The notes under the pieces are model-generated. The model was not told where the DNA came from. It saw only the letters and a program-made list of their open reading frames with translations, and searched no databases. Made by a program: the position numbers and the translations under genes. This document shows, in pieces, positions 5,418-15,071 of a stretch of 48,098 nt of DNA. This stretch comes from an uncultured Gammaproteobacteria bacterium (GTDB lineage Bacteria > Patescibacteriota > Patescibacteriia > Magasanikbacterales > GWA2-37-8): assembly GCA_964619625.1 (NCBI GenBank), contig CAZUFD010000001.1, positions 138,258 to 186,355 on the forward strand, in the 5' to 3' direction. The first letter of the stretch is position 1, and every line of letters begins with the position of its first letter.

Positions 5418-6095
5418 ATGCCAAACCATGTAAGCGAATCGGCGCTCACAGATACATTAACGCCCCTGGAAGAAGTGCGCGGACAAATCCCCAGTTTGAA
5501 AGCCGGTGATATTATTTTGATACATATAAAACGTTCTCTGCTGCGAAGTTTAATTCGCCGCGTGACCAAAAGTTATTGGGATCATGTGACAGCTATAGTG
5601 TATCCTAAAGATAATGACAAATTACAACAGAGCATTATTATTGAAAATATCAATCCCGGGTTAAGCGTTGATTATTATTTTTTAAGATCAGCTATTCGAG
5701 GCACGGAAATACACCACTTAAATAAATATTTGAATAATCCAAAAAAATACGATATCGGAATCAAGCGTGTTTCTTGGCTGACCGATGCGCATCGCAAGCG
5801 CCTTTCTTCTTTTTTGGTTACAACTATTGATACGCCGTATTGGCCAATGCCGTTTTGGAAATTTTTTTTAGCGTCAATTTGGCCAAAGTTTCGCCGTTGG
5901 TTTTTACATCAACAAAGATGGAGTTGTTCAACTTTGGTGCAAATGGCATATTACGAATCCGCTGCCAATTGGGAGGAGCGTTTAAAATTAATTTTTAAAG
6001 AAGGGGATTTATCGCCGCTTGAAATGCAAAGTATCGTATCTCCGGCTGAAATAGCGAATTCTGATAAGTCCCAGTGGATTTTTAACGAACATTAA
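5418..6095 (+). CDS. Permuted papain-like amidase (YaeF/YiiX, NlpC/P60-like)
   Basis: GDIILI, YWDHV (His), PY, WSCST (Cys) in permuted order. Confidence 0.78.
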   Translation: MPNHVSESALTDTLTPLEEVRGQIPSLKAGDIILIHIKRSLLRSLIRRVTKSYWDHVTAIVYPKDNDKLQQSIIIENINPGLSVDYYFLRSAIRGTEIHHLNKYLNNPKKYDIGIKRVSWLTDAHRKRLSSFLVTTIDTPYWPMPFWKFFLASIWPKFRRWFLHQQRWSCSTLVQMAYYESAANWEERLKLIFKEGDLSPLEMQSIVSPAEIANSDKSQWIFNEH

Positions 6096-6105
6096 ATTTA
6101 TTATA

Positions 6106-6753
6106 TTGGCTTCGCCTATGGAGTTATCAGAAAAAATACAACAATGGCATTTTGTGGAAAGCCAGTTAAAATTAGCTGATATTATTCTTGTGCATGGGGA
6201 AACCCCTGTTCGCCGCGCAATTCAGAAACGAACGAGCAGTTACTGGAATCATGTGGCTTTGGTGCTGCAACCGCCCCAATTGTCTTTGGGTATGCGCGGA
6301 GCCTTTATCATTGGCGCTATCAACAAAGGCATTGAAGTGCATAGACTCCGAAAATATTCCGAGGAAAGGGATAAATTTGATATTGGCGTTAAACGCCTGC
6401 CTTGGCTAACGGATGAAATGCGAGAAGATATTCTTTCGTTTATGTTAAACAAGATTGATTCCCCGTATGATTATACGCGGCTATTTGGCTATATTTTTGA
6501 AGGCATGTTAAAATTTATTTTACCAAAAGAGATGTTTAAAAAAGTGCGCCAATCCATCGTGGCTTCTCGGCCCAATTCGTTTGTGTGCAGCACGTTTATT
6601 CAGCACGCTTTTCTTGAATCTGTGCCCCGCAAAATGCAGGCCAAGACCTTTGCTCGCGACCATTTGCGTTCACTGCTTGAAATAGAAGAGATGACGCCGG
6701 CAGATTTTGCGAGCTCGCAAAATTATGAATGGATTTTTAACCCTCATGTATAA
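6106..6753 (+). CDS. Permuted papain-like amidase (YaeF/YiiX), paralog of upstream gene
   Basis: ADIILV, YWNHV, PYD, FVCST, TPADF; true start may be ATG at 6118. Confidence 0.8.
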   Translation: MASPMELSEKIQQWHFVESQLKLADIILVHGETPVRRAIQKRTSSYWNHVALVLQPPQLSLGMRGAFIIGAINKGIEVHRLRKYSEERDKFDIGVKRLPWLTDEMREDILSFMLNKIDSPYDYTRLFGYIFEGMLKFILPKEMFKKVRQSIVASRPNSFVCSTFIQHAFLESVPRKMQAKTFARDHLRSLLEIEEMTPADFASSQNYEWIFNPHV

Positions 6754-10917: not shown

Positions 10918-11454
10918 ATGCAAGACCTGCAACAAAAGATAAAAAGTGTGCCAAGAAAATATATCTACATCGGCTTGGCGATTATTTTACTTATAATTAT
11001 TTTCGCTTTTGCTTTTAGAAATAACGGGGCCGATCAAACAGATTCAGATAGCGCGGACTCCCAGGAAAATTTAACATCTGCTGATGGATCAGCAACTTCA
11101 ACTACATCCACGGCTGATACGACGAAAAAATCAACCAGCCCGACTAAAGCCCCCCCTGCTCCGCTTTCCGCCACCCAACGATATTTAGATGCCATCAAGA
11201 TTTATAAAACCTCGGGGTATTATTTTCAATTTGTTGATTGCCATGGTTTGCCAGGCAGCTTAACCCTTAAAAAAGGTAAAAAATTTATGCTTGATAACCG
11301 AGATGCTAAAACGAGAAAAATTGCGATTAAGGGCGGTCAAAGCTTCACTATTACTGCATATAACTTCGCGATTGCTACTGCCCCTTCCAAACCGGGCACT
11401 TATTATATAACCTGTGATGGCGGCGGCGCAGCTTCAATCTTGGTGCAGCAATAA
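10918..11454 (+). CDS. Membrane-anchored protein with S/T-rich linker and possible cupredoxin-like domain
   Basis: N-terminal TM, low-complexity linker, PGSLTLKKG...N.D...GTYYITC pattern. Confidence 0.65.
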   Translation: MQDLQQKIKSVPRKYIYIGLAIILLIIIFAFAFRNNGADQTDSDSADSQENLTSADGSATSTTSTADTTKKSTSPTKAPPAPLSATQRYLDAIKIYKTSGYYFQFVDCHGLPGSLTLKKGKKFMLDNRDAKTRKIAIKGGQSFTITAYNFAIATAPSKPGTYYITCDGGGAASILVQQ

Positions 11455-11473
11455 TTTTCAAAATGTTAAACAT

Positions 11474-11504
11474 AAAAAAACAGCCTTCTCAAGAGGCTGT
11501 TTTT
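11474..11504 (+). terminator. Intrinsic terminator
   Basis: AAAAACAGCCT-loop-AGGCTGTTTTT. Confidence 0.8.
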
Positions 11505-11506
11505 GA

Positions 11507-11535
11507 TTGACAGGACAAGGCTTTCTCGGTAGGCT
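11507..11535 (+). promoter_or_regulatory. sigma70 promoter of putative ncRNA (TTGACA-N17-TAGGCT)
   Basis: Perfect -35, 17-bp spacer, TA..T -10. Confidence 0.65.
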
Positions 11536-11540
11536 TGTTT

Positions 11541-11895
11541 TTAGTCGGAGAAAAGGCCTTCGGGCTGAAAGAAGGTTGGGTAGCAGGGGCAGCAAACCAG
11601 CAGACCTGCTCGGTAACAATCTGTGGTTTGTGGAAACACAAATCGGCCTAGTCAATCGTTGCCTATATCCCAAAAGGTGAGGCACGGTTATCCGGCTAAT
11701 AGCAAGGGAGTCGCTCCCGGTGGTTCTTTTTAATACGCAGAGATAGTTTTGGTGTCGCGGGGCGATGCCAGGATAAAGGCTGTGATATTAAAAGGGTGTA
11801 AAATTTGCGCTCCTCAGTGGTTGGGGAGTACTTCATACCTTGTCCACCGCAAGATCCCACCCTGTAAGAATGCTGGTATTCTTACAGGTTTTTTT
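11541..11895 (+). ncRNA. Unidentified highly structured ncRNA (~350 nt including terminator)
   Basis: Many nested helices with G-U pairs, UUCG and GAAA tetraloops, own promoter and terminator, no credible ORF. Confidence 0.7.
11861..11895 (+). terminator. Intrinsic terminator of the putative ncRNA
   Basis: CCTGTAAGAAT-loop-ATTCTTACAGG followed by T7. Confidence 0.85.
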
Positions 11896-11935
11896 AATTT
11901 GCCAATAACCTTTGTTTTTAGTAGAATAACGACAT

Positions 11936-12238
11936 ATGTCCCTCTCCACTCAAGAAGTAAAAAAAATTGCGCAGCTCGCGCGAATCAAACTAACGCCGGA
12001 AGAAGAAGCCAGACATGCCGAAACTATTTCGGCCGTTTTAGATTACATGAATATCTTAAATGAAGTAGATATAAGCGGGGTGGAACCAACCTTTCAGGTA
12101 ACCGGACTGGAAGATGTAACCCGAATAGATGAACCAAGAGACTGTAAAATAACAAAAGAATTAATGGCACAAATGCCGGAAGTGGAAAATGCCGAGCTGG
12201 TCGTGCCGGGCGTATTTGCCGGAACCGAAGAAGAATAA
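11936..12238 (+). CDS. gatC: Asp/Glu-tRNA amidotransferase subunit C
   Basis: VKKIAQLARI, LNEVDISGVEPT; adjacent to gatA. Confidence 0.92.
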   Translation: MSLSTQEVKKIAQLARIKLTPEEEARHAETISAVLDYMNILNEVDISGVEPTFQVTGLEDVTRIDEPRDCKITKELMAQMPEVENAELVVPGVFAGTEEE

Positions 12239-12240
12239 GT

Positions 12241-13674
12241 ATGTCAACATTAAATGAATTAACAATCAAAGAAGCGCAGGAAGGGTTGCGAAGCAAAAAA
12301 TTTACCGCCGTGGAATTAACGCAGGCGTGTTTGAATAGGATTAAAGAAAGAAATAAGGATATAAATGCGTTTATTACGGTTTGTGAAGAGTCCGCACTAG
12401 AAGAAGCCCGTATTGCCGACGGACTACTCGCTTCAGGCCAAGACGCGCCGCTCACCGGTATTCCGTTTTCCGTAAAAGATGCAATTTGCACAGCCGGTGT
12501 GCGCTCTACGGGTTCGGCCAAAATTTTGGATAATTATATGCCGCCGTTTGACGCAACGGTGATTGGCAAAATTAGAAAACAAGGCGGAGTACTTCTTGGT
12601 AAAAATAATTGCGATGCTTTTGGCCATGGCGCCAGCAATGAAAACAGCATGTATGGGCCGGTGCGCAACCCGCATGATTTATCTAAAGTTGCGGGTGGAT
12701 CATCCGGTGGTTCGGCCGCGGCAGTTGCCGATAACATGTCTATTTTTTCAATTGCCGAAGATACGGGCGGCTCTATTCGTCAGCCTGCCAGTTTTTGTGG
12801 TATGGCCGGTTTTCGTCCAACATATGGCCGCAATTCCCGATATGGCATTATGCCTATGGCTTCATCGCTTGATACGGTGGGTCCGATAACCAAAACTGTC
12901 TATGACAGCGCGCTCGTAATGCAGCAAATCGCCGGCGCTGATTTGCTAGATGCCACTACTATTGTTGATTCAGTACCGGATTATTTAAAAAATTTTGAAC
13001 AAGATTTAAAAGGCATGCGTGTCGGTATTCCCAAAGAATACTTTGAACTGGAGGGATTAAATGATGAAATAAAACAAATCACGCAAAAACAAATTGAGGC
13101 GCTAAAAAATTTAGGTTGCACAATTGAAGAAGTCAGTTTGCCGCATACCAAATATGCGATTGCGGTTTACTATATTTTAGTTCCCAGTGAAGATAGTTCA
13201 AATTTGGGAAGATTGGACGGTATTCGGTACGGCTCCAGACAAAAAGGAAAAGACCTGTATGATTTATATGCCACCTCTCGCGCTGAAGGTTTTCCTGAAG
13301 AAGTGAAACGCCGAATTTTAATTGGCACCTATGCGCTTTCGGCCGGATATTATGATGCCTATTACAAAAAAGCACAGACCGTGCGTACGCTGATTAAAAA
13401 AGATTTTGATGAAGCATTTAAAAAAGTAGACGTGCTCATTACGCCCACGTCGCCATTTGCCGCTTTCGGCGTGGGAGAAAAGAAAGACGATCCGTTGGCC
13501 ATGTATTTGGCTGATGTGATGGTTTCTCCGGCGGCGATTGCGGGTGTGCCGGCACTGTCGGTTCCATCCGGCAAAAATGCCGCCGGTTTGCCGATTGGCG
13601 TGCAGATTATCGGTTCACGAAAAAATGAAGAAGCAATTTTCAGAGTAGGAAATAAAATTGAAATAAGAGGGTAA
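12241..13674 (+). CDS. gatA: Asp/Glu-tRNA amidotransferase subunit A
   Basis: Amidase signature GGSSGGSAAAVA, DTGGSIRQPA, EVKRRILIGTYALSAGYYDAYY. Confidence 0.96.
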   Translation: MSTLNELTIKEAQEGLRSKKFTAVELTQACLNRIKERNKDINAFITVCEESALEEARIADGLLASGQDAPLTGIPFSVKDAICTAGVRSTGSAKILDNYMPPFDATVIGKIRKQGGVLLGKNNCDAFGHGASNENSMYGPVRNPHDLSKVAGGSSGGSAAAVADNMSIFSIAEDTGGSIRQPASFCGMAGFRPTYGRNSRYGIMPMASSLDTVGPITKTVYDSALVMQQIAGADLLDATTIVDSVPDYLKNFEQDLKGMRVGIPKEYFELEGLNDEIKQITQKQIEALKNLGCTIEEVSLPHTKYAIAVYYILVPSEDSSNLGRLDGIRYGSRQKGKDLYDLYATSRAEGFPEEVKRRILIGTYALSAGYYDAYYKKAQTVRTLIKKDFDEAFKKVDVLITPTSPFAAFGVGEKKDDPLAMYLADVMVSPAAIAGVPALSVPSGKNAAGLPIGVQIIGSRKNEEAIFRVGNKIEIRG

Positions 13675-13703: not shown

Positions 13704-15071
13704 ATGCCTAAATCTGATTTGATCAAAGAATCAATGCCGGTTACCGGAGCCTCGGTAAAACCAGATTTAACCGTTGCCGCCCACACTTCCGGTGAAATGA
13801 TAAATTATAGGGACAGCTGGCGCATTTTTAGAGTTGTATCCGAATTTGTGGAAGGATACCAGCTCTTGGGCGAATTAACCAAAGAAGTAACTATTATGGG
13901 TTCGGCGCGATTGCCTGCCAATAGTAAATATTATCACATCGCTGAAGAACTAGGTTATTTGCTGGGAAAGAATGGTTTTACCACCATCACCGGCGGCGGT
14001 CCGGGTATTATGGAAGCGGCCAATAAAGGGGCTTTTGAAGCAGGTGGAGAATCTGTAGGTATAAACATCCAATTGCCCATGGAGCAGCGCATTAATCCGT
14101 ATGTAAAAAAATCAGCGGCATTTTTCTATTTCTTTTCCCGCAAAGTAATGTTAACGGCTCCGGCCAACGCCTTTGTGTTTTTTCCTGGCGGTTTCGGCAC
14201 GCTGGACGAATTTTTTGAAGTTGTAGACTATATTGAAATGGGGCACATGCCAAAAGTGCCGATTATTATGGTGGGCAAAGAATTTTGGGAGCCAATTATA
14301 AATTTTTTGCGCGCCAAATCCGCTCGCGAAGTCCATTCCATAAACGAAACCGATTTAAATCAGTGGCATGTGGTAGATACAGCCAAAGAAGCTTTTGAAT
14401 TTATAAAAGATACTGAAGATCGCCCCAATCCATGGGTAAAAGATCCGAGCAGTCCGTTTTACCAAGGTGATTTGAACTGGAGAATTTTTAGAATCATGGC
14501 GGAAATGGTAGATGGTTTTGAATTTCTTACCAAGATCCAGCGTGATGTGACCGTGCTTGGCACCAGCAGCATTCTGCAAGGCAGCCCGTATTACCAAGCA
14601 GCCTATGAACTGGGTAAAATTTTGGCAGACCAGCAATACACCACCATCACCGGCGGCGGTCCGGGTATTATGGAAGCGGCCAATAAAGGGGCTTTTGAAC
14701 GCGGTGGGCAAAGTTTGGGTATCAATATGCGCACGGAACGGGGAGAACGCATAAACAATTATGTTACCCAGTCTATTGGTTTTTTCTTCCCATATATTCG
14801 CAAACTTATAATTACCGCGCCTTCGGAAGCATTTGTATTTTTCCCTGGCGGTTTCGGCACTTTGCATCAGCTGTTTGAAATTTTAACGCTGCAGGAAACA
14901 AATAAAATAAAACCGATCCCGACGCTTCTCTATGGCCGTGAATTTTGGCAGCCGCTGCTAGATATTGTCCACAACTTACATGATGAATTTAAAACCATTA
15001 CCAGAATTGACGAAGACTTTTTGAAACTGATGGATACGCCCCAGGATATTCTGGAGCATCTAAAAAAATAA
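13704..15071 (+). CDS. Tandem two-domain LOG-family (Rossmann-fold, TIGR00730-like) protein
   Basis: Two copies of TGGGPGIMEAANKGA and PGGFGTL. Confidence 0.88.
   Translation: MPKSDLIKESMPVTGASVKPDLTVAAHTSGEMINYRDSWRIFRVVSEFVEGYQLLGELTKEVTIMGSARLPANSKYYHIAEELGYLLGKNGFTTITGGGPGIMEAANKGAFEAGGESVGINIQLPMEQRINPYVKKSAAFFYFFSRKVMLTAPANAFVFFPGGFGTLDEFFEVVDYIEMGHMPKVPIIMVGKEFWEPIINFLRAKSAREVHSINETDLNQWHVVDTAKEAFEFIKDTEDRPNPWVKDPSSPFYQGDLNWRIFRIMAEMVDGFEFLTKIQRDVTVLGTSSILQGSPYYQAAYELGKILADQQYTTITGGGPGIMEAANKGAFERGGQSLGINMRTERGERINNYVTQSIGFFFPYIRKLIITAPSEAFVFFPGGFGTLHQLFEILTLQETNKIKPIPTLLYGREFWQPLLDIVHNLHDEFKTITRIDEDFLKLMDTPQDILEHLKK
13980..14699 (+). repeat. 60-bp exact direct repeat (13980-14039 and 14640-14699) inside the LOG gene
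   Basis: Nucleotide-identical segments 660 bp apart. Confidence 0.92.

Follow-up and report, generated by a model that had tools for sequence, protein, structure and literature searches.

A structured, lineage-restricted non-coding RNA gene upstream of gatC in Magasanikbacteria

Organization of the locus

The RNA element described here (11507-11895) lies in the window, the whole 48,098-nt stretch of DNA analysed from genome G000, between a gene of unknown function coding for a 178-aa product (10918-11454) and gene gatC (11936-12238, + strand; Pfam GatC, E 1.1e-13). The upstream gene is followed by a terminator hairpin (AAAAACAGCC...GGCTGTTTTT; 11476-11504, + strand), which the first-pass annotation had correctly seen ahead of the RNA, and which delimits the RNA unit on its 5′ side and exists at the empty sites of relatives too; the scanner placed this symmetric hairpin on the - strand. 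Next comes a putative promoter (11507-11535, + strand) with TTGACA (11507-12), a 17-nt spacer and TAGGCT (11530-35). This sequence is present as annotated, but its -10 hexamer matches only three of the six consensus positions and the promoter scanner made no call. In G004, one of the two other genomes that carry the RNA, the counterpart reads TTGACA, 17 nt, TAGTGT, and in both species the predicted start, ca. 7 nt past the -10 at about 11541, coincides with the first base of helix P1. The unit ends in an intrinsic terminator (11861-11895, + strand), consisting of an 11-12 bp stem followed by U7; the scanner recognised 12 pairs (11861-88) and T7, in agreement with the strong terminator noted earlier. 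From these promoter-like and terminator sequences we infer transcript ends at ca. 11541 and ca. 11895.

Downstream of the RNA terminator, and again as first annotated, there is a putative promoter for gatC (TTGCCA-17-TAGAAT, 11899-11927, + strand), called by the scanner with 10 of 12 consensus positions. Its -10 hexamer (TAGAAT) ends 8 nt 5′ of the ATG, with no Shine-Dalgarno sequence in between (11922-11938), so that a gatC transcript would have little or no leader; the same short distance between -10 and ATG is also found in relatives. Gene gatC is followed by gatA (12241-13674, + strand; Amidase, E 3.1e-141) and then, instead of gatB, by a gene for a 455-aa protein (13704-15071) with two LOG/SLOG-type domains (Lysine_decarbox, E 5.4e-57; LDcluster4, E 6.5e-37). 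Elsewhere in the window, the adjacent ORFs 5418-6095 (225 aa) and 6106-6753 (215 aa) are paralogous, with common motifs and a similar C-terminal end, W-I-F-N-x-H.

Three layouts occur 5′ of gatC within this single genus: the RNA gene, a terminator and promoter only, or gatC abutting an ORF. The second is found in seven genomes lacking the RNA (G011, G007, G006, G001, G010, G008 and G009), where the terminator of the upstream gene is followed directly by a TTGCCA-17-TAGAAT/TAAAAT promoter and gatC. There is no spacer between gatC and the upstream ORF in G002, G005, G014 and G013, and in G015 a different gene lies upstream of gatC. The carriers retain the ancestral gatC promoter between the RNA terminator and gatC.

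Secondary structure of the RNA

The + strand of 11535-11895 folds with a minimum free energy of -136.3 kcal/mol, as compared to a mean of -108.6 (sd 5.06) for dinucleotide shuffles (z -5.47), and none of 100 shuffles equalled it; the fold of the - strand is weaker (z -2.60), with one of 100 shuffles being as good. Inspection of the sequence found every helix listed in the first-pass annotation at its given position, although that inventory had overlooked P3.

Domain 1 (11541-11699, + strand; 42 pairs) is a four-way junction closed by P1 (TTAGTCGGA / TCCGGCTAA, 11541-49 / 11691-99, + strand), from which P2 (GGCC-UUCG-GGCU, 11555-66, + strand), P3 (GGUUGG / UCAAUC, 11574-79 / 11652-57, + strand) and P6 (TGCCT / AGGCA, 11660-84, + strand) depart. 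The third arm, P3, branches again, and encloses P4 (AGCAGG / CCTGCT, 11582-87 / 11605-10, + strand), a small hairpin CGG/CUG and the GNRA hairpin P5 (GGTTTGTG-GAAA-CACAAATC, 11625-44, + strand), whose loop is GAAA in G000 and GUAA in G004, both of them GNRA. The 17-nt loop of P4 (11588-11604, + strand) is nearly invariant, being GGCAGCAAACCAGCAGA in G000 and UGCAGCAAGCCAGCAAA in G004.

A linker hairpin between the domains, GGGAG-UCG-CUCCC (11706-11718, + strand), is not retained as such in G004. It leads into domain 2 (11718-11849, + strand), closed by CGGUGG/CCACCG (11718-23 / 11844-49); in G004 the closing helix is formed by different complementary strands, GGAUAGAG/CUCUAUCU. Domain 2 contains a long hairpin of 72 nt (11725-96, + strand) that is absent from G004, in the manner of an expansion segment. 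It also contains a conserved hairpin, CTCCTCA / TGGGGAG (11810-28, + strand), kept in G004 with three of its seven pairs altered on both sides. The conserved single strand UACUUCAUAC (11829-38, + strand) comes next, and the single strand UACUUNAUAC that follows the hairpin is retained in G004.

Two of the conserved loops are complementary to each other. The loop of the terminator (GCUGGU, 11872-77, + strand) is conserved in G004, and G000, G012 and G004 all have GCUGGUA in the terminator loop, with the stems of G000 and G004 sharing nothing. In G000, ACCAGCA of the P4 loop (11596-602) is complementary to the terminator loop over 7 bp; in G004, GCUGGUA pairs over 6 bp with GCCAGC of the P4 loop, an A-to-G change turning a U-A into a U-G pair. 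Groundwater sequencing runs show no difference at either contact site (11596-602, 11871-77), runs X3 and X4 covering both sites, X5 the P4 loop only and X6 the terminator loop only. The P4 loop probably pairs with the terminator loop in a kissing contact tying together the two ends of the molecule, a proposal based on conservation and on the single U-A to U-G change, with zero two-sided changes; chance alone would match 6 nt to a loop of 17 nt in ca. 0.3 % (Watson-Crick only) to 3 % (with G-U) of loop pairs. If so, the terminator hairpin may be read as part of the folded RNA.

Homologs and covariation

A BLAST search of 61 genomes (G000 and 60 relatives) gave, besides G000 itself, a single match, a 98 % identical copy in G012. 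DNA upstream of gatC was also taken from 30 loci, that of G000 included, and nhmmer matched part of the RNA in G004, at the corresponding site upstream of gatC (E 1.1e-9). A covariance model of domain 1 (R1; 11541-11699, 42 pairs), built from G000 and G012 only, matched the G004 copy, unseen by the model, over its full length with 64.3 bits (E 1.8e-14). In the alignment of G000, G012 and G004, 97.6 % of the pair cells are standard pairs and 12 of the 42 domain-1 pairs are altered on both sides, and none of 500 shuffles reached either value. When the partners were slid by 1-3 columns, 27-46 % of the cells paired and 0-2 pairs were altered on both sides. These counts come from just three reference sequences, of which G000 and G012 share 98 % identity, so that the covariation in the counted alignment amounts to one comparison (G000/G012 vs G004), in an alignment fitted to the model and of a size at which a formal covariation test has no power. 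RNAalifold, applied to the same three-sequence alignment, returned the same six helices plus the small CGG/CYG hairpin. MAFFT alignments shift the 3′ strand of P3, P6 and the domain-2 hairpin by 1-4 columns and were excluded from the pair counts, and domain 2 was examined one helix at a time instead.

A further comparison came from a contig of a public groundwater run from a different study (X4), which holds a ca. 92 % identical variant spanning the whole RNA and reaching into the start of gatC. It differs by 22 substitutions over 11541-11895; 13 of these are at paired positions (including 11611, in the small hairpin) and 11 of the 13 keep a standard pair, mostly via G-U. Examples are G-U to G-C at 11643, A-U to G-U at 11735, G-U to A-U at 11737, C-G to U-G at 11738, U-G to U-A at 11767, G-C to G-U at 11769 and U-G to U-A at 11824; the other two substitutions, at 11771 and 11772, disrupt the inner helix of the long hairpin at its base. 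On the opposite strand, every G-U pair in such a change would become a C-A mismatch, so these changes fit only the + strand, which is thus the RNA strand; this agrees with the better fold of the + strand and with the orientation proposed in the first-pass annotation. The copies also differ by indels, the P2 loop having 11 vs 4 bases and others being of +1, -4 and -5; none has a length divisible by three, and the region is therefore not coding. The fold of the RNA and its upkeep by compensatory change are thus seen directly in these sequences.

Comparison with known RNA families

At gathering thresholds, the 4227 models of Rfam 15 found four tRNAs in the whole window and nothing more. Searched at E values up to 10, the region 11400-12000 gave nine rows, all far under threshold and most of them falling on the upstream terminator; GlsR19 (12.8 bits vs 100) is the only one wholly within the element, and SQ2397 and ZFAT-AS1_3 (minus strand), likewise far under threshold, overlap its first bases. 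The G004 copy gave five rows against Rfam 15, none of them close to threshold. No family thus reaches threshold on either copy in the Rfam scan that had been proposed as a check and, together with a homolog carrying compensatory changes, this bears out the initial description of a novel or highly diverged large non-coding RNA.

RNase P RNA can be discarded, as no RNase P row appeared on the element at E up to 10 and rnpB is elsewhere in the genome (G000:C7:2410-2795), matching the type-A model over its full length (model positions 1-367) with 94.3 bits. This score is below the Rfam gathering score of 100, and standard annotation would overlook rnpB in this genome. The element is not a tmRNA either, since ARAGORN found none in the window and ssrA is at G000:C16:4542-4939 (134.7 bits). 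No T-box row appeared at E up to 10 on the copies from G000 and G004; reading of both sequences found no common alternative pairing against the 5′ strand of the terminator, and, unlike a T-box leader, the element is separated from gatC by the predicted promoter TTGCCA-17-TAGAAT. The 6S RNA model gave no match, and the element has two closed multi-helix domains rather than a single hairpin with a central bubble. There was likewise no match to signal recognition particle (SRP) RNA, and of its partner Ffh neither the SRP54 M domain (searched in the 16 genomes of the genus) nor the SRP54 GTPase domain (searched in G000) was detected. Among the housekeeping RNAs that were to be accounted for elsewhere in the genome, rnpB and ssrA were located on other contigs, but SRP RNA and 6S RNA were not detected in G000. 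Full-text literature searches, with the papers judged by title or abstract, found no account of the RNA. It belongs to a new, previously undescribed family, the newness being that of an RNA family lacking any detectable relative and not of a demonstrated new mechanism.

Distribution and history

Covariance models R1 and R2 found the RNA only in G000, G012 and G004, that is, in three of the 16 genomes of the genus. There were three real matches among 100 genomes of the family, three among 151 in a sample of the order and two among 151 in a sample of the class that does not include G012. Two weak matches were discarded: that in G024 (18.3 bits) lies within a 442-aa ORF resembling, by eye, a MiaB-type enzyme, and that in G337 (15.5-16.7 bits) within a 624-aa ORF. 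A pattern of the conserved core retrieved four loci from genome contigs, comprising G012, G004 and two chance matches, in Wenzhouxiangella and Sulfurimicrobium, that fail the covariance model; it retrieved no loci from viral contigs. From metagenome contigs, the first, stricter version of the pattern retrieved no loci and a looser one 15, none of which matches model R2 at E up to 1. The RNA was thus found restricted to three species of one genus, plus the ca. 92 % variant and closer copies in groundwater assemblies. Collecting homologs from CPR genomes and testing them for covariation had been proposed as a check; there is a homolog with many compensatory changes, but the family is far narrower than the CPR.

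The RNA is single-copy in the 978-kb genome. In a tree of gatC and gatA, the neighbours of G004 are G006 and G014, two genomes lacking the RNA, and G000 and G012 are placed elsewhere, so the carriers do not form one clade; the tree represents a single locus, its support values are modest and its outgroup is arbitrary. This split implies several losses or an old transfer. An imperfect direct repeat of 18 nt (83 % identity) at 11535-52 and 11912-29, with a spacing of 377, brackets the RNA unit; its first copy spans the predicted start and the 5′ strand of P1, and its second the -10 region of gatC. The repeat may have been left by a local duplication that involved the gatC promoter region, or may be a chance occurrence in T-rich DNA.

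Proposed function and alternative explanations

A real, novel and lineage-restricted gene for a structured non-coding RNA is located upstream of gatC. To the reading that it is an independent gene for a compactly folded RNA acting in trans, as a scaffold or by binding protein, we give about half of our confidence. The gene would produce an RNA of ca. 354 nt, from about 11541 to about 11895 of the + strand, running from its own promoter-like site to its own terminator. The transcript would fold into two multi-helix domains, with the P4 loop of domain 1 pairing with the loop of the 3′ terminator and joining both ends, and it would work as a folded scaffold or protein binder, being neither an antisense RNA nor a leader of gatC. 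It would be an accessory gene, kept by a few Magasanikbacteria species and lost from, or never present in, most. An action in trans is inferred, and the fact that in each of the three carriers the RNA lies directly ahead of gatCA and points the same way also fits a role in cis. The carriers do not form a single clade in the gatCA tree, and it is not obvious what function would be under steady selection. An antisense regulator was considered and rejected, as no convincing target of its conserved single strands turned up in the genome and selection acts on helices and tertiary-type loops; the complement of the P4 loop, allowing up to two mismatches, has only two scattered matches in the 978-kb genome besides its own site.

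The signals for its own start and termination, the presence of the gatC promoter in relatives without the RNA and the lack of any competing pairing found favour an independent gene, and the promoter after the terminator, shared with RNA-less relatives, sustains the first-pass view of a free-standing gene rather than a leader. The fixed place beside gatCA nevertheless keeps a cis role as the main rival, although we consider it rather unlikely. According to this explanation, the RNA would be a riboswitch-like or tRNA-sensing leader of gatCA, with domain 1 as the sensor and the 3′ hairpin as the expression platform, and read-through of the terminator would add to gatCA transcription. Its orientation and its position directly ahead of gatCA, shared by the three carriers and the X4 contig, would be as expected, as would an intrinsic terminator whose conserved loop is complementary to a conserved loop of domain 1. 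T-box control of gatCAB has been described in Clostridium acetobutylicum, and the P4 loop contains CAG and CAA triplets, which are Gln codons. However, no T-box or any other riboswitch family appeared at E up to 10 with either copy, no conserved pairing rivalling the terminator was found in both G000 and G004, and gatCA runs without the RNA in 13 of the 16 genomes of the genus. With the ancestral promoter between terminator and gatC, its -10 at 8 nt from the ATG, gatC would have no need of a promoter upstream. Additionally, duplex predictions for the P4 loop against tRNAs did not single out tRNA-Gln or tRNA-Asn. The element could also be a relic or passenger of mobile-element or local-duplication origin, drifting without cellular function, an explanation we find improbable. 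It would agree with the patchy spread (three of 16 in the genus and, beyond it, in the samples of 100, 151 and 151 genomes, two weak matches, both in coding genes), with carriers that are not monophyletic in the tree of the adjacent gatCA, with the flanking 18-nt repeat and with the clean empty sites of relatives. Yet helices are kept through compensatory and G-U changes across ca. 30 % divergence and two loops are invariant beside changing stems, which amounts to purifying selection on the RNA; moreover, the RNA is single-copy and lacks terminal inverted repeats, its neighbourhood contains neither a recombinase nor a transposase, and the core pattern had no match in viral contigs.

A diverged housekeeping RNA, be it SRP RNA or 6S RNA, is nearly excluded and is by far the least probable of these explanations. 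It is suggested by model searches of G000, which found neither a small or large SRP RNA nor 6S RNA. The RNA is nevertheless present in only three of the 16 genomes of the genus, yet a detectable small SRP RNA is missing from all 16. The SRP proteins are missing too, and no SRP RNA is therefore to be expected: the SRP54 M domain was found in none of the 16 genomes, no SRP54-type GTPase domain was found in G000, and in 61 relatives of the order the model of this GTPase domain gave only partial matches, with 18-25 bits and ending at or before position 112 of its 196. Nor did any open frame of G000 contain a DTAGR-type G3 motif. The architecture of two closed multi-helix domains differs from a long rod with a GNAR-capped helix 8 and from a 6S-type bubble, and no SRP or 6S rows appeared at E up to 10 on either copy. 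If the absence is real, Ffh, FtsY and 4.5S RNA would all be lacking throughout this CPR order; our search of titles and abstracts found no paper on the absence of SRP in this order.

The element might also be the first representative of a whole new class of large structured RNAs in CPR bacteria, performing a particular biochemical task linked to its fixed place beside gatCA and being more than a lineage-specific sRNA. This is a long shot; such an RNA might bind tRNA-Gln/Asn or the GatCAB complex, or might adopt a ribozyme-like fold held by the contact between the P4 and terminator loops. Few bacterial RNAs combine a length of more than 300 nt with an intricate, conserved fold, and the known large structured RNAs have repeatedly proved to be ribozymes, scaffolds of ribonucleoproteins or unusual assemblies. 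Since CPR genomes are tiny, ca. 1 Mb in this case, and the structure is under selection, a non-coding gene of 350 nt is unlikely to be idle. The RNA offers a concrete target, with clear domains and a testable long-range loop-loop contact, and its presence or absence among close species can be used for finding its partner; its narrow distribution limits the generality of any result.

Relationship to known systems

The RNA resembles type-A RNase P RNA (RF00010) in its similar size, its two-domain multi-helix fold and its GNRA loops. The AGUCGGA / UCCGGCU strands of its P1 loosely recall the P4 strands of RNase P, but they form a simple closing helix, unlike the long-range pseudoknot of RNase P. 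With T-box leaders (RF00230) it shares a position upstream of a tRNA-linked operon, a length of ca. 300 nt, several stems and an intrinsic terminator at the end, and it differs from them in having neither a T-box sequence nor an antiterminator alternative, nor a Specifier-loop or K-turn arrangement.

The raiA motif, OLE, ROOL and GOLLD RNAs are likewise large, contain multiple junctions and have a promoter and a terminator of their own; they are often situated beside one particular gene without being its riboswitch, and their function is unknown or only partly known. The RNA from this locus has no match in sequence or structure to the raiA motif (RF03072), OLE, ROOL or GOLLD, and it has no phage or tRNA-cluster context. 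Whereas those RNAs span many genera or phyla, this one was detected in three species of a single genus.
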